The notes: generated from the letters alone by a model not told the origin. DNA of 64,000 nt from Deltaproteobacteria bacterium (GCA_016186945.1 JACPKR010000038.1:15472-79471), one strand, 5' to 3'. Positions 4,261 through 61,751 are shown, counted from the first letter of the stretch. Numbers and translations: made by a program.

Positions 4261-4426
4261 TATAGTATTTGGGAAAAAGAATTTGTGGAGAGGACCTTTT
4301 TTGAAAAAAAGTTCCCCTCCACACCTCCCCCAAAAAACTTTAGATATTGAAGTTTTTAAAAAGGGGCTTGGGGAAAGAACTTTTTTCAAAAAGTTTTTCC
4401 CCAAATTGATTATCTTGAATACTATA
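4261..4426 (+). mobile_element. MITE-2 copy A (full length, includes flanking TA dinucleotides)
   Basis: TA|TAGTATTTGGG...GAATACTA|TA. Internal long hairpins GTGGAGAGGACCTTTTTT/AAAAAAAGTTCCCCTCCAC and GGGGAAAGAACTTTTTT/AAAAAGTTTTTCCCC. Five other copies are in the window. Confidence 0.8.
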
Positions 4427-4860
4427 GTAGAAACACTGCGCAATCTTGGATTAACAAAATCCATGCAGATTGCAGAGTAAGCGCTTTATGCCCTCTTTCA
4501 ATAAACTGTTGGATAATCTCAGGAAGGATTGCATTACTCGTAGAGAAGCATGTTACCTTTAGAAAGGCGGGCCAGAGTCATGACATGAAAAACGTTACCC
4601 ATGTTTTTGAATTTACTGACGAATAGCCTTTCCCTTTGTCGTAAGGCGTCTCGTTGCTGTTTCAAATATTCCAAACCGAGATCGGTCAGCCCTTGATAGA
4701 TCTTACCCGTCTCGGAATCAAAGATAATAAGTTCACTTATATCCGGCTTGTTTTCTCGGGCCTCTGCAAAACTCGCTTGGAAGGATAAAGCGAGGTTGCC
4801 GAATAGACAAAATTCCCTAACAGGCTAGTTTTGTTTTGTTTTGCCCGGTTTAAAGGGAAT

Positions 4861-4982
4861 GGGGCAAGGAGGTGGTTTGGAGGAAACTGCGCAGCTGGTT
4901 CCTCCAAGAAATCCGGGGGAGGCGACGCTTCCCTCGCCCCCCCAACCCCCCCTCTCCCTAGTTGCCCCAAGTGGCTTACGCG
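4861..4982 (+). mobile_element. MITE-1 copy 1 (left TIR missing)
   Basis: GGGGCAAGGAGGTGGTTTGGAGGAAACTGCGCAGCTGGTTCCTCCAAGAAATCC...CCCCAAGTGGCTTACGCG, shared with 15 other loci. Confidence 0.8.
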
Positions 4983-6936: not shown

Positions 6937-7102
6937 TATAATTTCAAGATAATCAATTTGGGGAAAAACTTTTTGAAAAAAGTTCTTTCCCCAAACCCCT
7001 TTTTAAAAACTTCAATAGTTAAAGTTTTTTGGGGGGAGGTGTGGAGGGGAACTTTTTTTCAAAAAAGGTCCTCTCCACAAATTCTATTTCTCAAAGACTA
7101 TA
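6937..7102 (-). mobile_element. MITE-2 copy B (full length)
   Basis: Reverse complement of copy A, flanked by TA on both sides. Begins 12 nt after the stop at 6925. Confidence 0.8.
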
Positions 7103-7206
7103 TCTGACCCTCTTGACCTCGCTAAAATCATAAGTAATTTCAATTAGTTGTAAAATTTTTTCGCTTGCTCAAGTAGACAATTTTCTCTAGGATCACAGCA
7201 AGATCA

Positions 7207-9153
7207 ATGTTTCCAAATCGTTCGGTGAAGAGGGATTTTATGAATCGCTTCTTAGTGCATGCAATCTTGGCGTACCTGTTGACTGCGTCTCCCTTCTTGA
7301 TTGCCAAAACGTTTACGATCCTTCACACAAATGACTGGCAATCGCGACTGCTTGGTTTTGGGCCTAACTCAAACTACGAACCCTCTCGGATCGGGGACGG
7401 AACGGTCGGGGGGATTGCTCGCCTGGCCACGCTCCTAAAAGCAAAGCGGGAGGCTGCGGGACAAAAGGGAGCTGTGCTTGTCTTGGACGCTGGCGATTTC
7501 ACAATGGGGACCCTCTTTCATACGATCACACGAGAGACAGGTGGCGAGCTTCAACTTCTAAACCTTCTTGGTTACGACGCCGTAGCTTTAGGCAACCATG
7601 AATTTGACTTCGGCCCGCAGGGGCTGGGGGACATGATCGAGTCGGCACTGAGAGAGGCAGGCTCACTTCCCCGACTTCTTGCTTCCAACATGGTCCTCTC
7701 GGAAAACGATCCAAGCGATGCAAAGCTTCGAAAATTCGTCAAGCAAGGCATTATTACCGACCATGCCATCATCGAACGGGGCGAGATCCGATTCGGCCTT
7801 TTTGGAATCATGGGCTACGACGCGTCGGAAGTCACCGTCAGCATGGGAGCTGTCACGTTTTCTGATCCCATCGAAACGTCTCGAAAAATGGTCGCGTTGC
7901 TGAAAGAAAAAAAGGCCGACGTCATCATTGTGCTGTCCCATAGTGGGGTAACAAGAAAGGAAGACGGCTCTTGGGGAGGAGAAGACGTTGAACTCGTCAA
8001 GAAAGTGCCAGGTATTGACATCGTAATCGGTGGGCATTCCCACACGACCCTCGACAAACCGATCCTTGAAGGGAAAACGTCTATCGTTCAGGTAGGTTCT
8101 GAGGTTCAGTTTTTAGGGGAGCTAGAGATGAGGATAAATTCATCCGTCGTCTCGATGCAGAATTATGTGCTGAATGCGATCAATGATCAAATCCTTGGGG
8201 ATAACTTCATAACACAAAAAATAGAGCATTTAGCTGATCTCGTGTCCGAACTCATTCTCAAACCAATGGGGATTCGTTTCGACGAACCTATCGCTAAGAT
8301 TGAAAGTGGTGCCACGAGAGACTTCGAAGATGACGTCATCGGAAACCTCGTTGCCAGCTCCTACAAGAGAGCCACTGGCGCTGATATCGGCTTCACTCCC
8401 AACGGAGTCCTAAGAGACGATCTGCACTATGGACGCGATGGCATTCAAAACTACTCCGATATCTTCCGCATCCTTCCCCTCGGTGTAGGGGAAATCGAAG
8501 ACACTCCCGGTTATCCCCTTGTCAAGGTATGGGTAAACGGAAAAGAATTAAAAAGCATCCTGGAGGTTCTTCTCCTGGCTTACAAGGTCAAGAACGAGAG
8601 TTACTACCCCCGCTTTGCCGGGATCGAATTTGATTACAACCCCCTACGTGTCCCCTTCGACCGTGTTATGGAAGTTCGCCTGCAACAAGGCGACGGCAGC
8701 TACCTTGTCGTCGATTTGAACGACGAAAACTCGCTCTACAGTATTGCCGCAACGTCCTATGAAGGGAAGTTTTTTTGGGTGATCCCTGAAGTCAGCATGG
8801 GGCTGCTCTCGGTAACTCCCAAATTCGAAGACGGGACACCCGTGCATGACATTGGCGATGCGCTCTTCGACGCCCAACCGGACATCAAGGCAATTCAGGA
8901 ATACAAAGCATGGCGAGCCTTGCTCGACCATATTCGTAAACTTGTCCCTGATGAAAAGACGCACCTCGCCTTTATTCCTACATCGGGTGCAGCAGCCCAC
9001 ACGCCGATGATCAAGAGAACAAGCCTCGATCCGCAGGATCTCTATAAAAACGCGACCTGGATCCAATGGACGGCGACTGCTGTTTTTCTTGTCAGCCTTT
9101 CGGTGCTGATTTTCGGCTTTATCCTTCTGATCCGCTGGAAGCGTAGTCGTTAG
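7207..9153 (+). CDS. bifunctional metallophosphatase/5'-nucleotidase, C-terminally membrane anchored
   Basis: Calcineurin-like motifs HTNDWQS, DAGDF, GNHEFD, SHSG and GGHSH, plus a 5'-nucleotidase C-domain. An alternative start at 7240 is possible. Confidence 0.8.
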   Translation: MFPNRSVKRDFMNRFLVHAILAYLLTASPFLIAKTFTILHTNDWQSRLLGFGPNSNYEPSRIGDGTVGGIARLATLLKAKREAAGQKGAVLVLDAGDFTMGTLFHTITRETGGELQLLNLLGYDAVALGNHEFDFGPQGLGDMIESALREAGSLPRLLASNMVLSENDPSDAKLRKFVKQGIITDHAIIERGEIRFGLFGIMGYDASEVTVSMGAVTFSDPIETSRKMVALLKEKKADVIIVLSHSGVTRKEDGSWGGEDVELVKKVPGIDIVIGGHSHTTLDKPILEGKTSIVQVGSEVQFLGELEMRINSSVVSMQNYVLNAINDQILGDNFITQKIEHLADLVSELILKPMGIRFDEPIAKIESGATRDFEDDVIGNLVASSYKRATGADIGFTPNGVLRDDLHYGRDGIQNYSDIFRILPLGVGEIEDTPGYPLVKVWVNGKELKSILEVLLLAYKVKNESYYPRFAGIEFDYNPLRVPFDRVMEVRLQQGDGSYLVVDLNDENSLYSIAATSYEGKFFWVIPEVSMGLLSVTPKFEDGTPVHDIGDALFDAQPDIKAIQEYKAWRALLDHIRKLVPDEKTHLAFIPTSGAAAHTPMIKRTSLDPQDLYKNATWIQWTATAVFLVSLSVLIFGFILLIRWKRSR

Positions 9154-9181
9154 CTGTTTGCCCGAGTTGTTGTTGAATCAA

Positions 9182-9330
9182 TATAGTATTTGGGAAAACG
9201 AATTTGTGGAGAGGACCTTTTTTGAAAAAAAGTTCCCCTCCACACCTCCCCCCAAAAAACTTCAAATACTGAAGTTTTTGAAAAGGGGGTTGGGGAAATA
9301 ACTTTTTTCAAAAAGTTTGTCTGAAATTCT
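9182..9330 (+). mobile_element. MITE-2 copy C (right end degenerate)
   Basis: The left 140 bp match copies A and E. Similarity decays after AAAAAGTTTGTCTGAAATT. The degenerate end overlaps the kinase ORF start. Confidence 0.7.
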
Positions 9331-10625
9331 TGATCCTCAATCTCTTGTCCACCTCGCTGCTTGCTGTAACACCGGCCCATCTTATCAAGCGGGTCCATTT
9401 TCCCCCTCGCCTTTCACAGGAGGTGGCCTACACCCTTTACGATTCCGCAAGTCTGAAAGCGACTCTGGAAGAAAGGTCCGACATTCTTCAGAAAGCAAAT
9501 CGCCTTGCGAATATTCTTAGCACCAAGCTCCCGGTCCGCCGCTCTAAAATTCAATACATGGTCGCGTTTATTGAAAAAAATAGGCAAGAGCACCCTGATG
9601 TCATAGGACTTGGTTCCCTCTACATTCCCAAAAATCACGAGCTTCCTTTTTCAATTCAAGTTTATGACAATGGACACACCTACATCAACCTTGAAGAGGC
9701 TGATCCCGAGAAGAAAAAAGGAGGCTATAAATCGTTTGCCCGGGCCCTCGACTACGATAACGAAACCTTCTACGCCCAACTACGTACCGAGGTGAAAGAC
9801 TTTTACAATCTTAAAAAACAAATCCGTGAACTGGAAATCATGGATCTCCTTCGTGACAGCCCCGAAGCTTTGAACTACCGAGACACCGATATTTACGTAG
9901 TCAAAGAATTCGATGAAGCGAAACATATCCTGTCCATTCATACAGAGGTATATGACACCGATCTTCGCTCTTTCAAAGGGCAGAGGGAGGATACCGAGCA
10001 GCTTCTCACGCTTCTGAAAGGAGCAACAAAAGGTCTTCATGCCATGCATCAACACTCCGTCGTTCATCGTGACTTAAAAGCTGCTAACTACTTTTTTAGG
10101 GAACGAGCCGGGACTAGGGAAATTGTCATCGCCGACTTCGGCTTGAGTCAGAGCGCTGACGATCCTCGCTTTGGCCTTAATCTGTGCGGTACCCGTGGGT
10201 TCATGGCACCAGAATCATGTCATCGCTGGGCTTCGGACCGATCCGCCTTCAGAACTCTAGCCGAGGGGAAAGCTGCGGACGTCTTTTCCCTGGGAATGGT
10301 GTTCCGGGAACTCATCTGGGGTGATCAGGCAAGCCCCGACAGCAAAGCTCTCACCCAACTCAACTACGCAGCCCTGCCCCCGAAAACAAGTGGGAAAACG
10401 CTTGACCCTAAGGAAGTTGAAAGTCGCTTCGAGAGTTTCGTCACAGCCTATGGAGCATCCTACCCTCAAGTTGGAGACGTGAGGCCCAGGACCAAATGCC
10501 TTTTCATTCTAAACGCACTGACTTGGAAAATGTTAGACCCTCATGCCCATGACAGGCCCTCAGCTGAATATGTACTCCAGAGTCTGCAGGATCTGGATCG
10601 CACCCAGCTTTGCGCAAACTCGTGA
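9330..10625 (+). CDS. Ser/Thr protein kinase (Hanks type)
   Basis: HRDLKAANYF catalytic loop, DFGLS and GTRGFMAPE activation segment. The start is uncertain (TTG at 9330 lies inside degenerate MITE-2). Confidence 0.75.
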   Translation: MILNLLSTSLLAVTPAHLIKRVHFPPRLSQEVAYTLYDSASLKATLEERSDILQKANRLANILSTKLPVRRSKIQYMVAFIEKNRQEHPDVIGLGSLYIPKNHELPFSIQVYDNGHTYINLEEADPEKKKGGYKSFARALDYDNETFYAQLRTEVKDFYNLKKQIRELEIMDLLRDSPEALNYRDTDIYVVKEFDEAKHILSIHTEVYDTDLRSFKGQREDTEQLLTLLKGATKGLHAMHQHSVVHRDLKAANYFFRERAGTREIVIADFGLSQSADDPRFGLNLCGTRGFMAPESCHRWASDRSAFRTLAEGKAADVFSLGMVFRELIWGDQASPDSKALTQLNYAALPPKTSGKTLDPKEVESRFESFVTAYGASYPQVGDVRPRTKCLFILNALTWKMLDPHAHDRPSAEYVLQSLQDLDRTQLCANS

Positions 10626-10695: not shown

Positions 10696-12309
10696 ATGAG
10701 GAATACCGTGAATCTCGAACACGAAATACAACGACGCCGTACGTTTGCGATCATCTCCCACCCTGACGCCGGCAAAACGACCATTACGGAAAAATTGCTC
10801 CTTTACGGGGGAGCGATCCAGATGGCTGGGACAGTGAAAGCCAAACGCTCAAAAAAATTCGCCACTTCGGATTGGATGGAATTGGAAAAGCAGAGGGGCA
10901 TTTCCGTAACAAGTTCTGTCATGAGTTTTCCTTACGCAGACCATGCCATCAACTTGATCGACACCCCCGGTCACCAGGATTTTTCCGAAGACACGTACCG
11001 CACCCTGACAGCAGTGGATAGCGCCCTCATGTTGATTGACTGCGCTAACGGTGTGGAGACCCAGACCAAGAAGCTTTTCGAAGTCTGCGCCCTGCGTAAA
11101 ACCCCTATCATCACATTTGTTAACAAACTCGATCGACCTGGACGTGATCCGTTCTCCCTATTGGAAGAGATTGAAAATGTCCTGGGTATTGCCACGTATC
11201 CCGTCACCTGGCCCATTGGCATGGGAGATGAATTTCGTGGGGTCTACAACCGCAAGACTCGGGAATTTCTGATCTACGACAGAAATTCGGACCGATCGCG
11301 TAAGGTGCCTCTCAGGGGCCTTTCCCTTGCCGATCCTCTCGTGGATCAAGAACTCGGAGACGAACATGCAAGAGCGTTGCGTGAGGACATCGAGCTACTT
11401 GATGCTGCAGGCGACAGCTTTAAGCTCCAGGCTTACCTGGAAGGAACACTCGCACCCGTTTTTTTTGGAAGCGCGCTAAACAACTTTGGGGTGGAGCTGC
11501 TGTTGGAGAATATTGTCCATCTTGCTCCTGGACCCCAGGCGAGGGATACAGCGCAACGAACGGTTATGGCAGATGAGAAGAATTTCACCGCCTTTGTCTT
11601 CAAAATCCAAGCTAACATGGACCCCGCGCATAGAGACCGTGTGGCCTTCCTCCGCATTTGTTCTGGCAAATTTGAACGTGGCATGAAAGCCCATCATGTG
11701 CGCCTGGGCCGCTTGATGCGCCTGGGACGCCCCACACATTTCATGGCGCAGGATCGTTCCCTAGTCGATGAAGCTTTCGCAGGTGATATCGTCGGTATCC
11801 ACGACCCCGGCTTGTTTCGCATCGGAGATTCCCTGTCATGCGGAGAAACCCTTAACTTCACAGATATCCCCGTGTTTGCTCCGGAACACTTCGTGCGTGT
11901 TGAACTCGCTGACCCACTCAAATCCAAGCAACTGAGAAAGGGCCTGGATCAACTTTCAGAGGAAGGAGCTGTTCAAGTTTTCCGCCCCCTTCACTCTAAC
12001 GATCAGTACTTGGGTGTTGTGGGCCTTCTTCAAATTGATGTTGTAAAATACAGGATCAAAGCAGAATACGGCGTTGACGTGAATATGAAAGCGCTGCCCT
12101 ATACTGCCGCTCGTTGGATTTCCTCGGACGACAAGAAAGCACTCGAAACGTTCAAAATCGACCAGGCAACCCATATCGTGCTGGACTCACATGAACATCC
12201 AACGCTGCTGCTTGATCATGACTGGCGTTTGAAATTTTATCAGGAACGGCACCCTGCTATCAAGTTTTTGCAAGTTTCGGAAGCCGTTCAAACGACCTAT
12301 AGTATTTAA
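10696..12309 (+). CDS. prfC: peptide chain release factor 3
   Basis: RRRTFAIISHPDAGKTT G1 motif, DTPGHQDF and NKLD. ATG at 10696 chosen over the track's upstream extension. The last 3 codons and stop lie in the TA+MITE-2 sequence. Confidence 0.9.
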   Translation: MRNTVNLEHEIQRRRTFAIISHPDAGKTTITEKLLLYGGAIQMAGTVKAKRSKKFATSDWMELEKQRGISVTSSVMSFPYADHAINLIDTPGHQDFSEDTYRTLTAVDSALMLIDCANGVETQTKKLFEVCALRKTPIITFVNKLDRPGRDPFSLLEEIENVLGIATYPVTWPIGMGDEFRGVYNRKTREFLIYDRNSDRSRKVPLRGLSLADPLVDQELGDEHARALREDIELLDAAGDSFKLQAYLEGTLAPVFFGSALNNFGVELLLENIVHLAPGPQARDTAQRTVMADEKNFTAFVFKIQANMDPAHRDRVAFLRICSGKFERGMKAHHVRLGRLMRLGRPTHFMAQDRSLVDEAFAGDIVGIHDPGLFRIGDSLSCGETLNFTDIPVFAPEHFVRVELADPLKSKQLRKGLDQLSEEGAVQVFRPLHSNDQYLGVVGLLQIDVVKYRIKAEYGVDVNMKALPYTAARWISSDDKKALETFKIDQATHIVLDSHEHPTLLLDHDWRLKFYQERHPAIKFLQVSEAVQTTYSI

Positions 12310-12464
12310 GATAATCAATTTGGGGAAAAACTTTTTGAAAAAAGTTATTTCCCCAAGCCCCTTTTCAAAAACTTCAGTATTTAAAGTTTTTTGGGGGGAG
12401 GTGTGGAGGGGAACTTTTTTTCAAAAAAGGTACTCTCCACAAATTCTTTTTCTCAAATACTATA
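12298..12464 (-). mobile_element. MITE-2 copy D (full length)
   Basis: Fills the entire prfC-glnS spacer, flanked by TA. The glnS ATG is 14 nt beyond it. Confidence 0.8.
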
Positions 12465-12477
12465 AAATAGGAAACCC

Positions 12478-14136
12478 ATGGAAACGAAACGATCTAGCAA
12501 CTTCATTCGTCAAATCATCGACGAAGACTTACGAACAGGAAAACATAAACAAATCATCACGCGCTTTCCTCCCGAGCCAAACGGTTATCTTCATGTCGGA
12601 CATGCGAAGGCCCTATGCGTGAATTTCGGCATTGCGGAAGACTACCCAGGGGCATACTGCAACCTGCGCTTCGACGACACCAACCCCCTTAAGGAAGACT
12701 TACACTTCATCGAAGCGATCCAAGACGACATTAGCTGGATGGGCTTCCAGTGGCACGGGGATATCAAATATGCGTCAGCCTATTTTGATAAACTTCACGA
12801 CTATGCTGTACAATTGATAAAAATGGGCAAAGCTTACGTCTGCCGTTTAAGCACGGACGAGATGAAGACCTATAGAGGAACACTTACAGAACCTGGAAAA
12901 GAAAGTCCCGACAGAAATCGTTCTATCGAAGAAAACCTTGCCATGTTCGAGAAAATGCGGGATGGCGTTTACGACGAAGGTTCCTACACTCTACGCGCTA
13001 AAATCGACATGAATTCCGGTAACGTCAACATGCGTGACCCTGTGATCTATAGAATCCTCAAGGCTACCCACCCGATGCTTGGAAATAAGTGGGTCATCTA
13101 CCCCATGTACGACTACACCCACTGCCTGTCCGACTCGCTCGAATATATCACCCACAGCCTTTGCACTCTTGAATTTCAAGATCATCGGCCGCTTTACGAC
13201 TGGTTTATTGACACACTTCGTTGCGAGAGTCATCCACAGCAGATCGAATTTGCTCGCTTGAACGTCAACTATACGGTCACCAGCAAACGAAAGCTACGTG
13301 CTCTCGTAGAAAATAAACTCGTCGATGCTTGGGATGATCCCCGAATGCCAACGCTGAAAGGAATGCGCCGACGAGGTTACACCCCATCTGCTATTAAAGA
13401 TTTCTGTGAGCGCGTCGGTGTGACCAAAAAAGAAACGACGATCGACATAAGCCTTCTTGAAGAGTGCGTCCGGGAAGATCTCAACAAAAATGCCCTACGC
13501 GCTTTCTGTGTTCTCGATCCCTTGAAACTTGTGATTGAAAATTATCCTCAAGGAAAAAAAGAGCAAGTTTCCGCCCCCAATCATCCGCAGAATCCAGACA
13601 TGGGATCCAGACCCCTGCCGTTCTCTCGAGACATCTACATCGAGCGAGATGACTTCGCAGAAGTCCCCCCGAAGGGCTATTTCCGCCTTTCCCCTGGTCA
13701 GGAAGTCCGTCTCCGTTACGCCTACATCATCCGATGTGAGAAAGTGGTGAAAGACGCCTCAGGTAAAGTCACCGAACTGCGCTGTAGCTACGACCCCGAC
13801 ACCTTGGGGAAAAACCCCGTCGGACGCAAAGTCAAAGGCGTCATCCACTGGGTAAGCGCTGCCGACGCTGTGCCCGCTGTTGTCCGCCTCTACGACCGCC
13901 TGTTTACAGTCCCCGACCCTACGGAAAAAGAAAAGGACGGCATTCCCTACACAGATTTTTTCAACCCCCACTCCTTGGAAAGGCGCGACCACGCCATCGT
14001 TGAAGCGAGTTTGAGAAACGCTGCTCCCGAAACGCACTTCCAATTCGAACGACTGGGCTACTTCACCGTAGACCGGGATTCACGAGATAAACCTCTGACT
14101 TTCAACCGCACGGTGTCACTAAGAGAGACTCGGTAG
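12478..14136 (+). CDS. glnS: glutaminyl-tRNA synthetase
   Basis: Class I HIGH motif (PNGYLHVGH), VTSKRKL (KMSKS-like) and a typical GlnRS C-terminal anticodon-binding region. Confidence 0.95.
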
Positions 14137-14186
14137 GGGCAAGACTCTTAGTTTTTCCTCACAGTCATTTCTGTATAGACACCCTT

Positions 14187-14325
14187 GTAACCCGTAAGCT
14201 GTTTGTGGCAAAAAGGGAGAGGGGGGTTTGGGGGGGCGAGTGAAGCGTCGCCTCCCCCGGATTCCTTGGAGGAACCAGCTGCGCAGTTTCCTCCAAACCA
14301 CCTCCTTGCCTTAAGCGGCCTATGC
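14187..14325 (-). mobile_element. MITE-1 copy 2 (full length, degenerate TIRs)
   Basis: GTAACCCGTAAGC...GGGAGAGGGGGGTTTGGGGGGGCGAG...TTGGAGGAACCAGCTGCGCAGTTTCCTCCAAACCACCTCCTTGCC... Confidence 0.8.
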
Positions 14326-14339
14326 ACCTGGGGCGGCCT

Positions 14340-16487
14340 ATGAGAATGACAAGATTCGTTTTTCCTTTCATCACTCTATTAACGATCAACCTGGCAACTC
14401 AAAGTTTTTCCTTGGGCGATATTTCATACGCACAGATGGGAGAATACCTGGAAAATCTTGGCTTAGGGGGTGAATGTACCGCAGAATCCTATCAGCGCAT
14501 GCGGGACATGCTCATAAACACGCTCTCCCAAATCCAAGATGTATCCTGTGAAGCCGAGCAGCAAACTTGCCAGAAAGGGAAGATCGTAGACTGCACCTTT
14601 CAATTCCCGCATGAGTGGTGCGTCCAACTTTTACAAAACGAAGAGGACGACGGTTTTTCCAAACCTCTCAGGAAAAACTTCGTCGCCATCCTCAAATACG
14701 GCATTGCGCAACTGGAAAAACACAAGTCTTCTGAAACGCAGGAGCAGGCATTCGTCTTCATGCTTGCGAAGAATATCCTCTACAATATTTTTTCTGTCCC
14801 GTTCAAAACCCGCAAGATGACCTTTGAAGAAATTGTCACCTTCCCTGCTAAATTGACCTCCAAATTACGCTACAGGGGAGAGAAAGACAGGCGGGAACCC
14901 ATAACGCTTGAAGATGCCAAGAAAGAGGCAAAGTTTCTCGTCGACCCAGAGTCTGCCCAGCCTGATCGCTTTCTCACACCCTCAGAACTGGTGGGGAAAA
15001 CACACGAAGAACTTGCTGCCCTTGACGTTCGGGAGGATCACCACATATGGCACTCTGAACGTTATATGAAGGAACACCCCCGGCTCTGGGACGACTTCAT
15101 GAAGATGATGCAGACCTTGATAGAGCAGAATCTCGACGAGAGAAACGATGTCGAAACTCCGTACGACTTGGACCTGATGCGCCAAGTCGTTTGGCTCGAA
15201 CGGTTCCAGGACTCCGCAGGTGTTCATCCCAAATTAAGAGTCCGTGATGTACACGGATTCAAATGGAAACTGAAATTCGGGAGCGAGTTTTTTTCCGAAC
15301 AACTAGCTAACTTTCTTTACCTTTCCCTTGGGGGGAAATACAACGATCTTAATTTTTCCCACACCGTCGCAAATCCCGTCTACGTGGTTCTCCAAGAAAA
15401 GCCAGTTGAGCAAATGCAACAAAATCGGAAAACCCAACTTGCATGCGTAACTATCGCTACCCCTGACGACCTTCAACAATGCCTTGATAAAAAATCTAAG
15501 AAGCCGATTAAAATAAGCCAATACGTCCTACCAGGAAACGTAGGTGTGATCGACGACTCCAATCTTGCTGCTTTCATGAAAGATTCCCACATGAAAGAGA
15601 AAGACCTATTGGGACGCCACTACATAGCACTGCACCAGGTTTCCATGGAGTTCCGTGATAAACGTATCCTAAAACGAACGGGACCTGCTCCTCACAGTAC
15701 GATGGGAAACGAAGATGATCGCGCGATGCGTGGTATGATCCTCTTCCATTTCTGGGTCGACAACTTCGATGTTAAAGATGACAACGGAGAAGGTGCACTT
15801 ATGCCTACCCCGTACGGCCCTCGTCAGCTCATCCAAGCACCTACCGACCTCGGTGGTGCTTTCCGCGGCTCGCTCGGTCACGGCACCGGTGTTCTTGGAA
15901 ATGGTATCGGTATCAATCATTACAATGAAAAAGATTGGCTTTTTGTTCCTGCGCTTGACAGGAGGCACTTGCTCTACCCAAGATTGATGACTTTCTTCCC
16001 CGATTCGGCAAAGAAAGCACGCTTCTCAGATACCCTCTGGATGGCGAAGAAGATTGTGGGCCTCCCCTTCGACACCATCAAACGAGGGGTTGATATGACC
16101 CCCCTTCCTGACTTCTATAAAGATCTCCTTCTCTATAAACTAGCGAAACGTCGAGCTGACTTAGCCAAACTATACGGTATTGAAGATTTGCTCGATGTAA
16201 GCACGCTCAAAATTCCGGAACACAAGGTATCGTTCGGTTGTCCTGGATGTGACGAGGAAATTGCCGAGCGTTACCATATTCCCGTCAGCCTGATCGCCGC
16301 AGAACGGAAAAAGCTAGGCATCGACGGAAAACAGTGGATCGAATCTGTTGTCAGAAAGGGAAGACTTGAAAAGTGCAACACGTCTCTTCTCATCAACCTG
16401 CTGGAGCGCTACGCTTACCCTGACGGGCTTTCCCGCAACCACCTCATCGTATTTGAAAAACCAGGGGTCTGCCGTTTCCATTTGTAA
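14340..16487 (+). CDS. secreted hypothetical protein with protein-kinase-like motifs
   Basis: Signal-peptide-like N-terminus (MRMTRFVFPFITLLTINLATQS). Motifs FKWKLKFG, FWVDNFDVKDDN (D-x-K-x-x-N) and TDLGGAF (DFG-like) in kinase order. Confidence 0.5.
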   Translation: MRMTRFVFPFITLLTINLATQSFSLGDISYAQMGEYLENLGLGGECTAESYQRMRDMLINTLSQIQDVSCEAEQQTCQKGKIVDCTFQFPHEWCVQLLQNEEDDGFSKPLRKNFVAILKYGIAQLEKHKSSETQEQAFVFMLAKNILYNIFSVPFKTRKMTFEEIVTFPAKLTSKLRYRGEKDRREPITLEDAKKEAKFLVDPESAQPDRFLTPSELVGKTHEELAALDVREDHHIWHSERYMKEHPRLWDDFMKMMQTLIEQNLDERNDVETPYDLDLMRQVVWLERFQDSAGVHPKLRVRDVHGFKWKLKFGSEFFSEQLANFLYLSLGGKYNDLNFSHTVANPVYVVLQEKPVEQMQQNRKTQLACVTIATPDDLQQCLDKKSKKPIKISQYVLPGNVGVIDDSNLAAFMKDSHMKEKDLLGRHYIALHQVSMEFRDKRILKRTGPAPHSTMGNEDDRAMRGMILFHFWVDNFDVKDDNGEGALMPTPYGPRQLIQAPTDLGGAFRGSLGHGTGVLGNGIGINHYNEKDWLFVPALDRRHLLYPRLMTFFPDSAKKARFSDTLWMAKKIVGLPFDTIKRGVDMTPLPDFYKDLLLYKLAKRRADLAKLYGIEDLLDVSTLKIPEHKVSFGCPGCDEEIAERYHIPVSLIAAERKKLGIDGKQWIESVVRKGRLEKCNTSLLINLLERYAYPDGLSRNHLIVFEKPGVCRFHL

Positions 16488-16488: not shown

Positions 16489-16518
16489 ACTGGGAACAGT
16501 CATTCTTCTTTTCCCAGT
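16489..16518. terminator. candidate bidirectional stem-loop between convergent genes
   Basis: ACTGGGAA-14 nt-TTCCCAGT. It starts 2 nt after the stop at 16487 and overlaps the last codons of the GH1 gene. Confidence 0.3.
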
Positions 16519-18005
16519 AAGCGACCATCTTTGATGATCTTTCTATAGATTTCAGCGCTTGGTCGAAATCTACGCTCAAACTCGTTATCGAAATCGACCT
16601 GCATGAGTCCGAATTTCAATTCAAAACCGTGGATCCATTCGAAGTTGTCCATCAACGACCAATAGAAATATCCTCGTACATCAACCCCACCGTGGCGCAT
16701 GGCGTAACCCATTTCTTTGATATGGGCCGGGATGTATTTTTGCCGTAGCGTGTCGTTGAAGGCAGCCTCCGCAATGCCATGTTCAAGTACAAAAATAGGG
16801 AGGTGATATTTGTCGTTAAGAGCCGTCAACACACGATAGAAGCCATGAGGGGACATGACGTGCTTCATCTCGTCAACGTCCTGTGTAGGATCGTTGGGAT
16901 CGTATTCATACACATCCGGATTATACGGGTCGTTTAGCTTGCTTTGAAAAAAAAGACGCCCGTAGTAGTTTACCCCCAGATAGTCTTGCGATCCTGCCAG
17001 ATCGGGAATGCTCTCGTTAAATGATGAGCCGGAAACATGAAGCTTGCCCGTTGCCAGAGCGTCAAGAAAGTCGTAATGAAAAGCCTGCTCTGCTATTTTT
17101 GCCGAGATCCTGTCTAGCGGATTGAATCGACGCATAGGCTCGAAGGTCCGAGAGTGTTTGGCAATCCCCACCCAGGTTTCATGATCGTTCTCTTTCTCGA
17201 ATGCTTTTATAAGTTTATATGCCTTCAAATGAGCTTTCAGCAGCTGTGAGACAACGGGAGCATACTCGTCTGGCTCCTTGCGCTTCTCGAGCGGAGGGTA
17301 ATAACCAAGATGATAGCCTTCGTAAAGGTAGACCATAGGTTCATTGAGCGTCACCCAATAGGAAACATAGCGTCCATAATGATCGAGACATGCTTGCACA
17401 AACTGACCAAACAATTCAAGCGCGTCCTCCCTCTCCCATCCACGCTTTCCATTGCGTTCATTCCAAAACCACTCGGGTGTGGCAAAATGGAACAGGGTAA
17501 CGAATGGTTCCATTTTCAAGCTTTTCAGCGTCTCGAAAATGTTTCTATAATACTCAACTCCGTCCGGATCAGGCTTCGTCATCCCCTCACGTGGGAAGAG
17601 TCGTGACCAGGAGATCGAGAAGCGGTAAGCATTCGTCCCCAAGGATTTCGCATCACTGAGATATTCCATCGCAAGCGAATCGTAGTTCGTCTTCTTCTCT
17701 CGGACATCATTAGAATAGTTGTCCAGGCGAGCAATATGACCAGCCTTTGGTAATAAACTCCTCCCCGAGGCTTCGTCCGTTAATCCCTCCTTGACTACAC
17801 GTTTTTCAAAGGCTGTCCAGTCACTCGCCTGCTGTCCCTCGACTTGTTGATCAGAACTTGCAGTGCCCCAGAAGAATTGACTGGGGAATTTGAAAGGAGT
17901 GTCTTCAAACTGTGAGAATACCCGGTCTACACGATCATTTCCCAAACGGAAAATCGAAGCATATGTACCAAGTCCAATTCCCAGAGCAAGAAGAAACCAT
18001 TTCAT
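16500..18005 (-). CDS. glycoside hydrolase family 1 (beta-glucosidase-like), N-terminal signal/anchor
   Basis: GH1 signatures FxWGxAxSxxQxEG, TLNEP (acid/base) and YFYWSLMDNFEW. The nucleophile region reads VLEHG. Confidence 0.85.
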   Translation of the reverse strand: MKWFLLALGIGLGTYASIFRLGNDRVDRVFSQFEDTPFKFPSQFFWGTASSDQQVEGQQASDWTAFEKRVVKEGLTDEASGRSLLPKAGHIARLDNYSNDVREKKTNYDSLAMEYLSDAKSLGTNAYRFSISWSRLFPREGMTKPDPDGVEYYRNIFETLKSLKMEPFVTLFHFATPEWFWNERNGKRGWEREDALELFGQFVQACLDHYGRYVSYWVTLNEPMVYLYEGYHLGYYPPLEKRKEPDEYAPVVSQLLKAHLKAYKLIKAFEKENDHETWVGIAKHSRTFEPMRRFNPLDRISAKIAEQAFHYDFLDALATGKLHVSGSSFNESIPDLAGSQDYLGVNYYGRLFFQSKLNDPYNPDVYEYDPNDPTQDVDEMKHVMSPHGFYRVLTALNDKYHLPIFVLEHGIAEAAFNDTLRQKYIPAHIKEMGYAMRHGGVDVRGYFYWSLMDNFEWIHGFELKFGLMQVDFDNEFERRFRPSAEIYRKIIKDGRLLGKEE

Positions 18006-18040
18006 AAGTCATCCTTTCATCAAAGCCTCTTTAAAGCCTT

Positions 18041-18087
18041 GCAAGGAGGTGGTTTGGAGGAAACTGCGCAGCTGGTTCCTCCAAGAA
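18041..18087 (+). mobile_element. MITE-1 copy 3 (core hairpin only)
   Basis: GCAAGGAGGTGGTTTGGAGGAAACTGCGCAGCTGGTTCCTCCAAGAA in the divergent promoter region. Confidence 0.8.
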
Positions 18088-18173
18088 TACGGTTTTTTTA
18101 AATTATCTCTAGACTTTCACATTTTTACAAGATATTAATTTGATTAAGAAATCAAATACAACAAAGGTTCTCT

Positions 18174-19694
18174 ATGCATGACGATGTTCGTTGCCGAAGT
18201 TTGTGGCTCGCTCTGACTCCTATGTTGTTTCTTGTCACATTGTTAGCTTTCAATCTCAAACTTTACGGTGACGGAGCAGCCGCTGGCCCTAACCAGGTTG
18301 CCCTTCTTTTGTCTGCTATGTTTGCAACATGCGTTGGTGTTTTTGCCTTGGGCATTCCCTATAAAAACATTGAGTCTGCCATCCTTGAATCTACAAGTCA
18401 TATTTTGCAGGCTATTCTCATCCTGTTGGTGGTGGGAGCTTTGATCAGCCTTTGGATACTGAGTGGAATCGTTCCGACTCTGATTTATTATGGCTTGAAG
18501 CTTCTCTCTTCCTCGATTTTTCTTCCCGTATCATGTGTCATTTGTACGATTGTCTCGCTTGCGACTGGTTCCAGTTGGTCGACCGCGGGAACGGTTGGAG
18601 TCGCCTTGATTGCAGTGGGCAAGGCACTTGGAATTCCCGAAGGCCTGGTCGCAGGTGCCATCATTTCCGGAGCATATTTTGGGGACAAGATGTCTCCTCT
18701 TTCCGACACAACCAACATGGCTTCTGCTATGGCCGGCGTCGATCTTTTTGACCACGTCAGACATATGCTTTACACAACCGTTCCTGCTTACACATTGGCT
18801 ATTCTGGGGTTTGTAATCACCGGGTTCTTCGTCACTCCCGCAGGGGGGGCGGACGGGAACATAACGGAAGTCCTTGGCGTCATCACTCAGAATTTCAACG
18901 TCGGACCACAGCATTTGTTTGTTCCGCTCCTGGTCTTGTTTCTCATAAGAAGGAAGATAGCTGCTTTACCTGCTTTGGCTGTAGGCTGCGTGCTCGCAGT
19001 TCCGTCAGCACTTCTATTTCAGCAACAATTTTTGCATCAAACTTTAGGAGAATCTTACGATGGCGCCAGTGTGTTCAAAATGATTATAAGCACAGCTGCC
19101 AACGGCTTCTCCAGCAAGACGGGATCGAGCTTGGTCGACGGCCTTCTCTCACAGGGGGGAATTTCGAAGATGCTAAGCACGCTTTGGCTCTTGATATCAG
19201 CGATGGTGTTCGGGGGAGCTCTGGAAGGATCGGGCATGTTGGCGCGTATTTCCCAAGCTTTGCTCAGCAGTGTCAGGAAAACGGTGAGCCTGATCGGAGC
19301 AACCCTGGCCAGCTGCCTTTTTGTCAACATGACTGTCGGTGACCAGTACCTTGCCATTGTCCTACCGGGCCGCATGTTTCGTTCGATCTATGCACGATAT
19401 AAACTCGATGCGCGCAATTTATCCCGCGCTCTCGAAGATGCCGGGACGGTTACGTCTGTGCTCGTGCCTTGGAACTCGTGCGGAGCCTACCATGCTGCCA
19501 CTCTGGGAGTGGCGACCTTGACGTACTTGCCGTTCTGCTTTTTCAACATTGCTAGCCCCTTGGTTTCGTTCGCTCTTGCTGCCCTTGGTTGGACAATCCT
19601 GAAGAGTTCAGAGAGCCAAGAAGAACAGAAATCGGATGCGATTTCCATTCCGGACCAAAAAAGGGTATCGTCATTTAGTGAACGTAATGCGTAA
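18174..19694 (+). CDS. nhaC: Na+/H+ antiporter NhaC family
   Basis: About 12 predicted TM segments and NhaC-type conserved blocks (GSSWSTAGT, GAYFGDKMSPLSDTT). The last 3 codons plus TAA lie in the MITE-1 TIR. Confidence 0.8.
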   Translation: MHDDVRCRSLWLALTPMLFLVTLLAFNLKLYGDGAAAGPNQVALLLSAMFATCVGVFALGIPYKNIESAILESTSHILQAILILLVVGALISLWILSGIVPTLIYYGLKLLSSSIFLPVSCVICTIVSLATGSSWSTAGTVGVALIAVGKALGIPEGLVAGAIISGAYFGDKMSPLSDTTNMASAMAGVDLFDHVRHMLYTTVPAYTLAILGFVITGFFVTPAGGADGNITEVLGVITQNFNVGPQHLFVPLLVLFLIRRKIAALPALAVGCVLAVPSALLFQQQFLHQTLGESYDGASVFKMIISTAANGFSSKTGSSLVDGLLSQGGISKMLSTLWLLISAMVFGGALEGSGMLARISQALLSSVRKTVSLIGATLASCLFVNMTVGDQYLAIVLPGRMFRSIYARYKLDARNLSRALEDAGTVTSVLVPWNSCGAYHAATLGVATLTYLPFCFFNIASPLVSFALAALGWTILKSSESQEEQKSDAISIPDQKRVSSFSERNA

Positions 19695-19764
19695 CCCGCT
19701 TTTGGCAAGGAGGTGGTTTGGAGGAACGCTGCGCAGCTGGTTCCTCCAAGAATTCCCTTGGGGC
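19684..19764 (+). mobile_element. MITE-1 copy 4 (left TIR plus core, right half missing)
   Basis: GTAATGCGTAACCCGCTTTTGGCAAGGAGGTGGTTTGGAGGAACGCTGCGCAGCTGGTTCCTCCAAGAATTCCC. Confidence 0.8.
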
Positions 19765-21859: not shown

Positions 21860-21891
21860 AAACTCAGGCTACCATAAACGGTCTGGTCCTG

Positions 21892-22024
21892 ACTTGGGGC
21901 AAATAGGGAGAGGGGGGTTTGGGGGGGCGAGGGAAGCGTCGCCTCCCCCAAGGGATTTCTTGGAGGAACCAGCTGCGCAGTTTCCTCCAAACCACCTCCT
22001 TGCCCCAAGTGGCTTACGCATTAC
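21892..22024 (-). mobile_element. MITE-1 copy 6 (near full length)
   Basis: ACTTGGGGCAAATAGGGAGAGGGGGGTTTGGGGGGGCGAGGGAAGCGTCGCCTCCCCCAAGGGATTTCTTGGAGGAACCAGCTGCGCAGTTTCCTCCAAACCACCTCCTTGCCCCAAGTGGCTTACGCATTAC. Confidence 0.85.
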
Positions 22025-22038
22025 CTTGGAGAAACTTC

Positions 22039-22746
22039 TTGGTCGACACAATAGAAATAAAGAAAAACTATCTCAAAACAGTCCTCTTTGGTCTTGGATT
22101 TTTTGCCCTTCTTGCTTGCGGGGACGACGCTAGTGCAGACAATTTTGGTTTAATCTCCCGACTTACGGACCACGCCTTTGCGGGCGAATATGCTAACGAC
22201 CCCGCCTTTGATTCTGCTCAACAGGCTTTTTCCCCTCTATCGGCTATAGATCATCAGGGAGGCAAAACGCTCGCGAGTCTTACAAAAAAACAAATTCGTC
22301 GCAACCGCCCGCAAGGCAAATGCCTTCGTTGGGTTCGTATCGCTCTTACGAAATACAAATGGCAACGTGAACAGGATAAACGAAAAAGCAAACGCACGTT
22401 CAGTTTCCACTCCCTTCCCCGCGATTCCCACCCCTTCGCTAAAAACATATTGTCCCCTGGCCGATCAGCCGCCGACTTCATGGGCTGGGCTCTTCAGAAT
22501 CCGGCTTCTCTATGCACCGAGTTGGGATTGGCAAATATTACGGATTTGCCTTACCACACGACTTTTGATGGTATGGTTTTCGTTTACGGGCGTGGCAAAT
22601 GTGGCTTTCACAGAAGGTGGGGGCATATTGAAGTCGTTACGAACGCCGAAAAAAAAGAAGTTTGCTCCGATCACTGTCGTAAACTTCAACCTGATTGCAA
22701 GCCCGATATCGTTCTGGCGCCTGTAACACACTGTGGCTGGCTATAG
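22039..22746 (+). CDS. lipoprotein, possible CHAP/NlpC-P60-like Cys-His hydrolase
   Basis: In-frame TTG at 22039 gives a lipobox (LFGLGFFALLAC). GKCLRWVRIAL (Cys) and RRWGHIEVV (His) follow the order of papain-like amidases. The TAG stop is the first 3 nt of MITE-2 copy E. Confidence 0.4.
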   Translation: MVDTIEIKKNYLKTVLFGLGFFALLACGDDASADNFGLISRLTDHAFAGEYANDPAFDSAQQAFSPLSAIDHQGGKTLASLTKKQIRRNRPQGKCLRWVRIALTKYKWQREQDKRKSKRTFSFHSLPRDSHPFAKNILSPGRSAADFMGWALQNPASLCTELGLANITDLPYHTTFDGMVFVYGRGKCGFHRRWGHIEVVTNAEKKEVCSDHCRKLQPDCKPDIVLAPVTHCGWL

Positions 22747-22908
22747 TATTTGAGAAAAAGAATTTGTGGAGAGTACCTTTTTTGAAAAAAAGTTCCCCTC
22801 CACGCCTCCCCCCAAAAAACTTTAGATATTGAAGTTTTTGAAAAGGGGTTTGGGGAAATAACTTTTTTCAAAAAGTTTTTCCCAAAATTGATTATCTTGA
22901 ATACTATA
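22742..22908 (+). mobile_element. MITE-2 copy E (full length)
   Basis: TA|TAGTATTTGAG...GAATACTA|TA, about 95% identical to copy A by eye. Confidence 0.8.
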
Positions 22909-22964
22909 GCTCAGACAAGTGTGAAAAGACCAGTGACTTCGCAGGGGATGAAAATCAGTTCATT

Positions 22965-23759: not shown

Positions 23760-24814
23760 AGAACATTTTTTATGGTTTCACCTTTGTTTGTGTTCTGCTT
23801 GCGACACCCAACTGTGTTGCAGGAGTCTCCTCGCGTGGAGTTTCCTCAGAAAAAGTATACAGGATTGCGTTTGGTTCCTGTGTTCATCAGGACAAGGAAC
23901 AGCCTGTGTGGGAGGCAGTTTTAAAAGATCATCCAGACCTATTCATCTTTCTTGGCGACAATATTTACGGCGATACGGAAGACATGAAAGTTTTACAGGA
24001 GAAATATGACAAGCAAAACAGCAAGCCTGGCCTTTCAGAACTTCGCAAGCAAACAAGAGTGATCGGTACCTGGGACGATCACGATTATGGCGTGAACGAT
24101 GGAGGAGCAGAGTATCCGAAGAAGGAGGAATCACGGCAAATCATGTTGAACTTCTTCGAAGAGCCTGGAGATTCTCCCCGAAGGACTCAAGACGGTGGAG
24201 TATACGCCTCCTACATGTTTGGAGAAGGTAGCGAGGCTATTCGCGTCATTTTACTGGACACTCGCTGGGCACGCAGTCCTCTGATAAAGGTTCCAGAAGA
24301 AGAGCTTGAGGATCGCGATAACCGGAACATGGGGCCATACGTAGCCAATGAGGCTCCTGAGGCACGGATGCTCAGCGAAACGCAATGGACCTGGCTGGAA
24401 AAACAGTTCGAAGGTGAAGCTTCCCTCACGATCATTGGTTCCAGTATTCAATTCCTCTCGGATTTCACAGGATGGGAAAGTTGGGCTAATTTCCCACCGG
24501 AAAAGGAACGACTCTTAGCCGTTCTCAAGAAGCATCCAGAAACCAGGGTGATGTTCATCAGTGGGGACATGCACTATGCAGAAGTCAGCAAATGGGATGG
24601 AATTCTTCCTTACCCTTTGTGGGATTTCACTTCGAGTGGGCTGACTCAGAGCTGGCATAATGTTTCACCTAATCTTTTTAGAGTGGGTAAGTCATTTCTT
24701 GAAGCCAACTATGGTCTGATGGAGTTTCAATTCGATCCGGTACCAAGACTTCGATTTCAGATCAAAAACGTGTTTGGAACGGTCTTGCAAAGTACGGATC
24801 TGGTTTTGCGGTAA
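23750..24814 (+). CDS. PhoD-like metallophosphatase (alkaline phosphatase D family), secreted
   Basis: Signal peptide, then FGSC..QD, FLGDNIYGD, WDDHDYG.ND and SGDMHYAE motifs. Confidence 0.75.
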   Translation: MYLKNIFYGFTFVCVLLATPNCVAGVSSRGVSSEKVYRIAFGSCVHQDKEQPVWEAVLKDHPDLFIFLGDNIYGDTEDMKVLQEKYDKQNSKPGLSELRKQTRVIGTWDDHDYGVNDGGAEYPKKEESRQIMLNFFEEPGDSPRRTQDGGVYASYMFGEGSEAIRVILLDTRWARSPLIKVPEEELEDRDNRNMGPYVANEAPEARMLSETQWTWLEKQFEGEASLTIIGSSIQFLSDFTGWESWANFPPEKERLLAVLKKHPETRVMFISGDMHYAEVSKWDGILPYPLWDFTSSGLTQSWHNVSPNLFRVGKSFLEANYGLMEFQFDPVPRLRFQIKNVFGTVLQSTDLVLR

Positions 24815-24937
24815 CAAGGGGATTTCTTGGAGGAACCAGCTGCGCAGTTTCCTCCAAACCACCTCCTTGCCACAAGAGGAACCAGCTGCGCAGTTTCCTC
24901 CAAACCACCTCCTTGCCACAAGCGGGTTGCGTATTAC
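24815..24937 (-). mobile_element. MITE-1 copy 7 (core duplicated in tandem, right TIR)
   Basis: Two successive GGAACCAGCTGCGCAGTTTCCTCCAAACCACCTCCTTGCCACAAG units, then CGGGTTGCGTATTAC. Fills the whole spacer between convergent stops. Confidence 0.8.
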
Positions 24938-30445: not shown

Positions 30446-30519
30446 TCAACGATTTCTACTTATATGAATAACTTGATAAGCAGGCGAGAAGCAACCGGAA
30501 ATTAGCTACGTCAAAATCG

Positions 30520-30640
30520 CGTAGGACACTTGGGGCAAATAGGGAGAGGGGGGTTGGGGGGGCGAGTGAAGCGTCGCCTCCCCCGGATTTCTTGGAGGAA
30601 CCAGCTGCGCAGTTTCCTCCAAACCACATCAATGCATTAC
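30520..30640 (-). mobile_element. MITE-1 copy 8 (internally deleted), flanked by a 14-bp direct repeat
   Basis: CGTAGGACACTTGGGGCAAATAGGGAG...CCTCCAAACCACATCAATGCATTAC. CTACGTCAAAATCG occurs at 30506-30519 and 30641-30654. Confidence 0.75.
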
Positions 30641-36748: not shown

Positions 36749-36810
36749 ACATCACACTCCACGAAAAATTGTTTTTGAAATTTGGAATTGATTATAGGGA
36801 AAAAAATCGT

Positions 36811-36863
36811 TTGGGGCAAGGAGGAGGTTTGGAGGAAACTGCGCAGCTGGTTCCTCCAAGAAA
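36811..36863 (+). mobile_element. MITE-1 copy 9 (core only)
   Basis: TTGGGGCAAGGAGGAGGTTTGGAGGAAACTGCGCAGCTGGTTCCTCCAAGAAA. Confidence 0.8.
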
Positions 36864-41311: not shown

Positions 41312-41360
41312 CAAGGAGGAGGTTTGGAGGAAACTGCGCAGCTGGTTCCTCCAAGAAATC
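41311..41360 (+). mobile_element. MITE-1 copy 10 (core only)
   Basis: GCAAGGAGGAGGTTTGGAGGAAACTGCGCAGCTGGTTCCTCCAAGAAATC, occupying the whole 47-nt spacer between convergent stops. Confidence 0.8.
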
Positions 41361-43943: not shown

Positions 43944-44033
43944 AAAGTTTATATTGAAGTTTTTGAAAAGGGGCTTGGGGAAAGAACTTTTTTCAAAAAG
44001 TTTTTCCCCAAATTGATTATCTTGAATGCTATA
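43944..44033 (+). mobile_element. MITE-2 copy F (right half only)
   Basis: AAAGTTTATATTGAAGTTTTTGAAAAGGGGCTTGGGGAAAGAACTTTTTTCAAAAAGTTTTTCCCCAAATTGATTATCTTGAATGCTA|TA. Confidence 0.75.
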
Positions 44034-44271: not shown

Positions 44272-44479
44272 TACATAGTCCCGATTGAGTAGTTTTTTCT
44301 CTACCCCTGCAATATCGCCCAGCGTTTATTTGCACCCATAAAGTTTGCTATGCCACCGATCCACGCTTTGGTGGTCATTGGAGAGACTCGAATTAAGGCT
44401 TTCAGACGTTCAATATGGAGAAGGTCCCCATAATTTTGGAGCCAACAAAGGACGAGTTTGAGAGTTTTGCTGTCACCAG

Positions 44480-44643
44480 GCGTAAGCCACTTGGGGCAAG
44501 GAGGTGGTTTGGAGGAAACTGCGCAGCTGGTTCCTCCAAGAAAAATCATGGGGGAGCGACCCTTCGCTTTGCTCAGGGCAGGCTTTTCCCTCGCCCCCCC
44601 AAACCCCCCTCTCCCTATTTGCCCCAAGTGGCTTACCCATTAC
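44480..44643 (+). mobile_element. MITE-1 copy 11 (long subfamily, both TIRs)
   Basis: GCGTAAGCCACTTGGGGCAAGG...core...plus the extra segment GAGCGACCCTTCGCTTTGCTCAGGGCAGGC...TTTGCCCCAAGTGGCTTACCCATTAC. Confidence 0.85.
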
Positions 44644-44921
44644 ATCCACAGTAATTAACATTCTGTATTTATTTAATAATTTACATTAATTTTGTTTGAA
44701 AATCGCAGATCTCATGAAAGAGGTTCCTTTCGGGGGGATAAAAGTTTGTAAGACACACCTAAACCCGAAGCAGCAACAAAAAAGACTGCTGGAATAAAAT
44801 ACCCCACGGCGCCGGATGCAGCGCGTGCTCACGATGTCATTGGATCCACTTTCTACATTGCGTAATGCTAGTTATGTCTCAGGGACTAAAGTTCGGCCCT
44901 GGACATCCGATATACATATTG

Positions 44922-45652: not shown

Positions 45653-45675
45653 TTCCTTGACTTTGCATCAGCCCT

Positions 45676-49498: not shown

Positions 49499-49500
49499 CT

Positions 49501-61749: not shown

Positions 61750-61751
61750 TT

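Follow-up and report, generated by a model that had tools for sequence, protein, structure and literature searches.

Known examples of kinases that work beyond the cytoplasm of bacteria are scarce, and how such enzymes would be supplied with a phosphoryl donor is a standing question. Among the atypical families of the protein-kinase-like (PKL) superfamily, Fam20 kinases reside in an oxidising compartment, are stabilised by disulfides and have been described as distant relatives of HipA (PMC6829671), and Fam20 has been placed in one cluster with CotH (PMC9758233). CotH kinases, VTC polyphosphate polymerases and DUF4956 proteins form a group of accessory genes found beside Pel operons (PMC7112168). 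In this study, we have analysed a gene at 14340..16487(+) of a 64,000-nucleotide stretch of DNA (hereafter the window) from a Deltaproteobacteria bacterium (GCA_016186945.1 JACPKR010000038.1:15472-79471), for which a preliminary description, made from the sequence, had reported the three core protein-kinase motifs in a secreted protein. Structure prediction and structural comparison place the product in the PKL superfamily, outside every named family and with Fam20C and HipA as its closest structural neighbours. Taken as a whole, our data make it likely that the protein is a Sec-exported, disulfide-stabilised and catalytically competent PKL phosphotransferase.

Predicted fold and conservation of the family

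The gene is complete, stop codon included, within an open reading frame (ORF) that is open from 14322, and translation from its ATG at 14340 gives a 715-aa product that does not differ from the one recorded at NCBI as 'MAG: hypothetical protein HYW48_07960 [Deltaproteobacteria bacterium]' (MAG, metagenome-assembled genome). The codon of K312 (15273-15275) lies inside HGFKWKLKFGSE, the catalytic-loop motif D477-V-K-D-D-N482 occupies 15768-15785 and the DFG-like motif D503-L-G505 occupies 15846-15854, with 165 aa from K312 to D477 and 21 aa from N482 to D503. The 715-aa ORF announced in the preliminary description is therefore present and matches a database record, and its coordinates for all three motifs are exact; its numbers for the proposed mutants (K318/D483/D509) are right for a 721-aa reading from the ATG at 14322, whereas the same residues of the 715-aa protein are K312/D477/D503. 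The predicted parts of the protein, based on AlphaFold2 (AF2) and conservation except where given otherwise, are:

14340..14411, plus strand: Sec-type signal peptide, aa 1-24 (from sequence; predicted cleavage directly before a conserved GD(I/V) motif)
14427..15149, plus strand: N-terminal all-helical domain, aa ~30-270 (AF2 secondary structure and conservation)
15177..15389, plus strand: kinase N-lobe, aa 280-350 (K298 at 15231-15233, K312 at 15273-15275, E316 at 15285-15287)
15390..15719, plus strand: family-specific insert of ~110 aa between the N-lobe and an alphaE-like helix (AF2; C369 at 15444-15446, C381 at 15480-15482)
15720..16184, plus strand: kinase C-lobe, aa 461-615 (also Foldseek; holds R461/R464 and both catalytic motifs)
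16197..16484, plus strand: C-terminal alpha/beta domain, aa 620-715 (C679 at 16374-16376, C711 at 16470-16472; P694-x-G696)

An AF2 run on an alignment of three sequences gave an unusable model (predicted local distance difference test, pLDDT, 43); the model reported here was built on an alignment of 112 sequences and has a pLDDT of 89.4, with 537 residues at 90 or above, and a predicted template-modelling (TM) score, pTM, of 0.91. Its secondary structure runs in kinase order: an N-lobe sheet (strands 283-290, 298-302 and 308-313, with K312 at the end of the last), a helix after this third strand (319-330), strands 338-341 and 347-350, and then a helical C-lobe, in which a long helix (461-472) leads to the D477...N482 loop, a hairpin (483-489 and 495-501) and D503-L-G, and further on to a helix at 562-574 with D564-x-x-W-M-A (from 16029) and to the invariant R604 (16149-16151). 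This kinase core is preceded by a helical domain of 240 aa, variable over its first ~160 aa and conserved at E196/L200 and L228-D-x4-H-x2-W237, and is followed by an alpha/beta domain of 95 aa at the C-terminus.

The best 50 matches of the model to the PDB in Foldseek were all kinases and came from at least six separate PKL branches. The best was Fam20C/Golgi casein kinase (E 0.077, probability 0.51-0.66, target-normalised TM 0.31-0.38), and the others included AAK1, PINK1 and a MAP kinase, HipA, VPS34/mTOR/ATM and Rv3197/COQ8A; in BFVD, the matches were mostly kinases of giant viruses (Ser/Thr, 'divergent' and PI3K/PI4K). The sequence and fold features that mark a PKL enzyme, namely a bilobal fold in kinase order (here a predicted one), a strand-3 Lys with a partner Glu (candidates E316 and E320) and a D-x4-N loop with an Asp about 20 aa further on, were all found.

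Two relatives only (36-38% identity), with all three motifs invariant in both, were found by a word-indexed protein search, run with the sequence and with the alignment. When 1.84 billion cluster representatives were searched exhaustively with HMMER (threshold E<=1e-3), 210 related clusters came up; 139 of them lie at E<=1e-10 and 96 reach E<=1e-30, and most are of 600-750 aa; the family size of about 200 used below counts clusters at 50% identity. Relatives in GTDB genomes belong to Verrucomicrobiales/Verrucomicrobiia, Bdellovibrionales, Riflebacteria/Ozemobacteraceae, a Methylomirabilis MAG and several unclassified MAGs, and all members that were looked up are unnamed or 'hypothetical'. Scans of the 715-aa protein gave no match at E<10 in Pfam or NCBIfam, no match in PADLOC and a single weak match in PHROGs (E 0.013, with a family that has no known function), and Pfam scans of 74 members (64, plus 10 long ones) gave no meaningful match, the sole match to HipA_2 (1 of the 64 members, E 0.02) being at chance level. 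The family is one of diderm, mostly uncultivated bacteria, and is without a name in any curated database. In each of two MAGs, the family is represented by two paralogues on separate contigs (CAYFLR010000041, locus L003, and CAYFLR010000013, L032; CAYMEN010000038, L022, and CAYMEN010000025, L024).

Conservation was read from an alignment of 112 members whose identity to the query is about 20-40% (average about 25%). It reaches 90% or more at only about 20 of the 715 query positions: K298, D303, W309, K312, E316, G331, G448, R461, R464, D477, N482, D503, G505, D564, W567, M568, P590, R604, P694 and G696. K312, E316, D477 and D503 are each conserved in 99% of the members, N482 in 97%, G505 in 100% and K479 in 89%. 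From residue frequencies, we estimate that D-x-K-x-x-N followed 15-30 aa on by D-[LF]-G would arise in about 1-2 per 1000 proteins of this size, and the bare motif pattern alone is only suggestive. The probability that K312, E316, D477, N482 and D503 all fall by chance in the set conserved to at least 90% is about (20/715)^5, or roughly 2e-8. The motif residues lie among these few columns, and the conservation pattern rules out coincidence and argues against a pseudokinase.

The preliminary description had set its kinase reading against two outcomes, motif residues not conserved in homologues and a structure prediction lacking a bilobal kinase fold; what we found are motif residues conserved at 97-100% (K479 at 89%) and a confident AF2 model whose top 50 PDB matches are all kinases. 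Its helical N-domain is seen in the model (aa ~30-270, all-helical), and its 'HipA/PI3K-like fold with a large insert' agrees with the presence of HipA, PI3K-type kinases and Fam20C among the structural neighbours. The family, which it did not recognise, indeed matches no Pfam or NCBIfam model. The Glu-containing helix that it placed after the Lys needs an amendment: a conserved Glu is present, but E316 in 'GSE' (99%) is better kept than E320 (77%) at the start of helix 319-330.

Of the described kinases, the Fam20C family (Fam20A/B/C, Four-jointed, Fam198) gives the best Foldseek PDB matches (5yh2_C, 4kqa_A and 5yh0; probability 0.5-0.66). Like Fam20C, the present family is an atypical PKL without GxGxxG and with an N-terminal export signal (here a predicted one), and an oxidising compartment and disulfides, known for Fam20C, are predicted for it. 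Unlike Fam20C, it is bacterial and has the 240-aa helical N-domain, the 110-aa insert, the C-terminal domain and a D-x-K-x-x-N loop; there is no match to Pfam Fam20C (PF06702) at E<10, and the structural match is marginal (E 0.08, TM 0.2-0.38). HipA-type kinases (3hzi, 3dnv, 3tpv) are also among the top Foldseek matches and share the N-x-D-x4-N catalytic segment and, by our own reading of the sequences and as a lead only, a loop Lys in place of the glycine-rich loop ('ATSPK298' here, 'GAQEK' in HipA). A non-significant hhalign alignment to HipA (probability 0.3%) sets D477/N482/D503 on HipA D309/N314/D332. However, HipA is the cytoplasmic toxin of a toxin-antitoxin pair, whereas the present protein is predicted to be exported and has no antitoxin-like neighbour; an HMM match at chance level only, a predicted signal peptide and the lack of a HipB/HipS-like neighbour set it outside the HipA family (PF07804/PF20613).

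CotH (PF08757) resembles the present family in being an atypical PKL of bacteria, with homologues that are frequently exported and with genes that accompany DUF4956 membrane proteins (PMC7112168). It differs in that there is no Pfam match, that hhalign (0.8%) aligned the wrong, non-homologous regions, that 5jd9 is absent among the 50 Foldseek matches listed, and that no VTC partner was seen in the present family, a Metallophos phosphatase taking its place. With PI3K/PI4K-type kinases (VPS34, mTOR, ATM), the Foldseek alignments span about 660-715 columns, which suggests, at the level of the model, a shared layout of a helical domain followed by a kinase domain; on the other hand, TM-scores are 0.14-0.17, probabilities are at most 0.08, and there is neither a DRH motif nor a PF00454 match. 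Eukaryotic-type kinases (PF00069/PF07714) are set apart by the absence of a Pfam match at E<10, by hhalign against PKA (0.3%), by the missing GxGxxG and by 'FDVKDDN' in place of HRD.

The top BFVD matches also contain a few large phage polyvalent proteins, which fit the model best among the viral structures and are fused to portal or ADP-ribosyltransferase domains (E 0.005-0.17): A0A4D6E245 (Gordonia phage GodonK, 1479 aa), A0A6J5S481 and A0A6B9L6W7. Such proteins may carry an unrecognised kinase-like domain.

Predicted export and gene neighbourhood

The N-terminus, MRMTRFVFPFITLLTINLATQSFS|LGD, combines a basic n-region with a hydrophobic core of 14 aa, and small residues occupy positions -3/-1; this Sec-type layout fits the signal peptide suspected in the preliminary description. 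An N-terminal hydrophobic segment is found heuristically in 97 of 110 Met-starting members, several of them with a lipobox, and in the closer relatives a conserved 'GD(I/V)' directly follows the predicted cleavage site. Two pairs of cysteines vary together in the 112 members: C369 and C381 occur together in 71, are jointly missing from 39 and stand singly in only 2, and the corresponding numbers for C679 and C711 are 69, 38 and 5. Such co-variation is, in sequence terms, the signature of structural disulfides; the pairs are gained or lost together and would therefore be structural disulfides, hence pointing to an oxidising, extracytoplasmic location. Based on these features, the protein is very likely exported and extracytoplasmic, and it would end up in the periplasm or be secreted.

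In the window, the gene lies between glnS (12478-14136, same strand) and a convergent glycoside hydrolase family 1 (GH1) glycosidase (16500-18005), and a promoter and terminator scan around it gave nothing above background. In the window's own clade the gene is a stand-alone unit, because in the loci of its closest relatives the flanks are unrelated housekeeping genes and no conserved operon was found. The upstream glnS had prompted the idea of a HipA-like toxin, HipA toxins being directed at aminoacyl-tRNA synthetases; we rejected it, since export of the protein is very likely, an antitoxin is lacking and relatives do not have glnS next to the gene. A tblastn search of phage and plasmid collections returned no homologues.

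The context differs in more distant relatives among the 28 loci (L numbers) examined. In 10 Verrucomicrobial loci, a gene for an exported, purple-acid-phosphatase-like Metallophos protein (~595 aa) directly precedes the kinase-like gene, often with overlapping stop and start codons, and 8 of these 10 also have a protein in which a signal peptide and a PepSY-like domain are combined with a DUF4956 domain of four transmembrane segments. This three-gene set, for which all loci found come from MAGs, forms a putative operon. With it, DUF4956 now adjoins two unrelated exported atypical kinase families, CotH and the present one, and we regard this adjacency as the most interesting lead of the analysis. 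In a second clade, a gene for an exported 215-aa protein without Pfam match lies directly downstream of the kinase-like gene (L011, L016, L017 and L018), and three of these four loci (L011, L016, L018) also have a downstream exported protein resembling carbohydrate-binding module CBM48/X25. A GH2 neighbour occurs in L034, and the VTC domain was not found in the loci examined. The arrangements are:

L004 2568-7560: three-gene module (Metallophos, PepSY plus DUF4956, kinase-like); likewise in L005, L007, L008 and L014
L006, L010, L021, L027, L028: three-gene module, rearranged
L011 7448-8881, minus strand: second-clade downstream genes
L016 1635-3344, minus strand: second-clade downstream genes
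L017 4016-4657, minus strand: second-clade downstream genes
L018 1199-2491, minus strand: second-clade downstream genes

In L011 and L017, a UshA-like 5'-nucleotidase gene is adjacent and divergent to the kinase-like gene. The window itself holds a UshA-like 5'-nucleotidase at 7207-9153(+) (648 aa; it has a signal peptide and, at the C-terminus, a transmembrane anchor), which falls in the same blastp ORF cluster as these two; it lies 5 kb from the kinase-like gene, with prfC, glnS and one other gene between, and its nearness is probably coincidental.

The intergenic DNA of the window is rich in repeats. The copy of 'MITE-1' (MITE, miniature inverted-repeat transposable element) that the preliminary description placed directly before the gene is indeed there, but a link to the function of the gene did not hold up: a functional or mobile role of this copy was rejected, since the same palindromic repeat (120-140 nt, core GGCAAGGAGGTGGTTTGGAGGAAACTGCGCAGCTGGTTCCTCCAAG ... 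GCCCCAAGTGGCTTACGC, both orientations, about 16-20 copies) fills most intergenic gaps of the window. It is a genome-wide element, not specific to the kinase-like gene and outside its functional unit. A second, unrelated intergenic family (~170 nt, with an internal palindrome, …GGGGAAAGAACTTTTTTCAAAAAGTTTTTCCCC…) has copies that are 92-96% identical and in both orientations. The repeats are:

14184..14326, no strand assigned: palindromic repeat copy, ending 13 nt before the start codon and folding as a long hairpin
Palindromic repeat, positions: 4863-4980, 14184-14326, 18017-18090, 19681-19753, 21875-22027, 24783-24920, 30511-30639, 36792-36863, 41287-41358, 44472-44644, 45654-45736, 49227-49503, 56450-56600, 60735-60806, 61607-61761
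49233-49454: 45-nt sub-unit of the palindromic repeat in tandem, 4.9 times
Second repeat family: 4261-4427, 6943-7103, 9181-9348, 12294-12465, 22742-22912, 43951-44033
52940-53285: 22-nt unit (GCGGGATGACAGACTCAAAAAA, 96% matches) repeated in tandem 16 times, in a 930-nt gap between the ORFs 49928-52366(-) and 53297-55702(-)

Proposed reaction and its alternatives

The gene, its family, the conservation, the predicted class of fold, the export signals and the neighbourhoods are what the analysis shows; nucleotide binding, phosphotransfer, the class of substrate and the final location we infer. In the reaction that we propose, a nucleotide triphosphate would bind between the N-lobe beta-sheet and the helical C-lobe, where K312 of the third strand, with E316 or E320, would hold the alpha and beta phosphates and K298, from the loop that stands in for the glycine-rich one, would assist. 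D477 would be the catalytic base, K479 would contact the gamma-phosphate, N482 and D503 would bind Mg2+, and the phosphate would pass to a hydroxyl group of an extracytoplasmic substrate. A Lys two residues after the catalytic Asp (D-x-K-x-x-N) is a signature of Ser/Thr protein kinases, and K479 at this position weakly favours a Ser/Thr protein substrate over a sugar or lipid.

Several points weigh against this assignment. Foldseek gave no match at E<0.001 in PDB or BFVD and TM-scores are low (0.2-0.38), so that the fold assignment rests on the identities of the matches and on the order of secondary structure in the model, not on superposition, and the active-site geometry is likewise read from sequence order. 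Since no kinase match reaches E<0.001, we consider the proteins a new PKL family rather than members of a named one. Searches of PDB sequences, with the single sequence and with the profile, gave noise only and no kinase; when the core profile was aligned by hhalign to PKA, HipA and CotH, no alignment reached significance (probabilities <1%), the sequences used for HipA and for CotH of B. subtilis having been checked against the PDB. The GxGxxG loop is missing. The periplasm is generally thought to be without ATP, and the source of the phosphoryl donor is a difficulty for all readings that involve an active enzyme; PKL folds can also catalyse other reactions, such as AMPylation and glutamylation. 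Finally, the operon clue comes only from relatives that are about 25-30% identical, the window's own clade being without conserved neighbours.

The alternative that comes nearest to our proposal, with which it overlaps and from which it differs in substrate class only, is that of an exported PKL enzyme whose substrate is something other than a protein, for instance a glycan at the surface or in the periplasm, a lipid or a small molecule; we hold it to be unlikely, though it is the foremost of the alternatives. Among the top structural neighbours are the Fam20 family, with a glycan kinase as one of its members, and PI3K/PI4K-type lipid kinases: Fam20B is a xylose kinase, and PI-kinase-like bacterial enzymes also act on non-protein substrates. 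Carbohydrate-related neighbours (CBM48/X25-like in L011, L016 and L018, the convergent GH1 gene of the window, GH2 in L034) point the same way, but the glycoside hydrolase neighbours are not kept across loci and are transcribed convergently. K479 at D+2 (89%) is of the Ser/Thr protein-kinase type, and this Lys is not known from aminoglycoside, choline or sugar kinases; in favour of a glycan, CotH-DUF4956 modules adjoin Pel polysaccharide operons (PMC7112168).

A kinase fold with a different nucleotide-dependent transfer (AMPylation or UMPylation as in SelO, glutamylation as in SidJ) or with a donor other than ATP, for example polyphosphate, appears improbable to us. Atypical PKL families have repeatedly proved to have non-kinase chemistry, and here the missing glycine-rich loop and the additional invariant K298 and R461/R464 could mean that the nucleotide is posed differently; for phosphotransfer, however, both the catalytic loop and the DxG motif are canonical. 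The link of DUF4956 to VTC polyphosphate polymerases elsewhere (PMC7112168) makes a polyphosphate-related donor conceivable, but no VTC domain was seen in the loci examined. We give hardly any credence to a dead pseudokinase, a scaffold or binding protein, or chance motifs in a non-kinase fold. Foldseek E-values that all exceed 0.001 and sequence searches without a link to kinases would fit such a protein; against it, the K/D/N/D residues are all conserved at 97-99% across phyla, where pseudokinases typically lose one or more, and top matches drawn solely from many different kinase families are not possible by chance.

Possible implications for extracytoplasmic phosphorylation

The predicted fold and the conservation are well founded, as is the evidence that makes export very likely; the function is what we infer. 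The proteins form a new family inside a well-known superfamily, and a sizeable one, of about 200 clusters in several phyla, for which neither a Pfam or NCBIfam model nor a solved structure exists and in which a confidently predicted kinase fold, intact catalytic residues and export signals are combined. If the protein were an ordinary secreted kinase, the gain would be the annotation of this new family. A broader proposal, which we find rather improbable, is that the family is the catalytic arm of an extracytoplasmic phosphorylation system, in which DUF4956 would supply or gate the donor (ATP or polyphosphate) across the inner membrane and the exported phosphatase would reverse the reaction; if true, the eukaryotic secretory-pathway kinases (Fam20) would have in it their counterpart in the periplasm, and the CotH-VTC-DUF4956 module a parallel. 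The tie between DUF4956 and a second atypical kinase family, unrelated to CotH, is a clue to the function of DUF4956, and precise point mutants (K312, D477, D503), together with the Verrucomicrobial three-gene module, offer a handle on extracytoplasmic phosphorylation.

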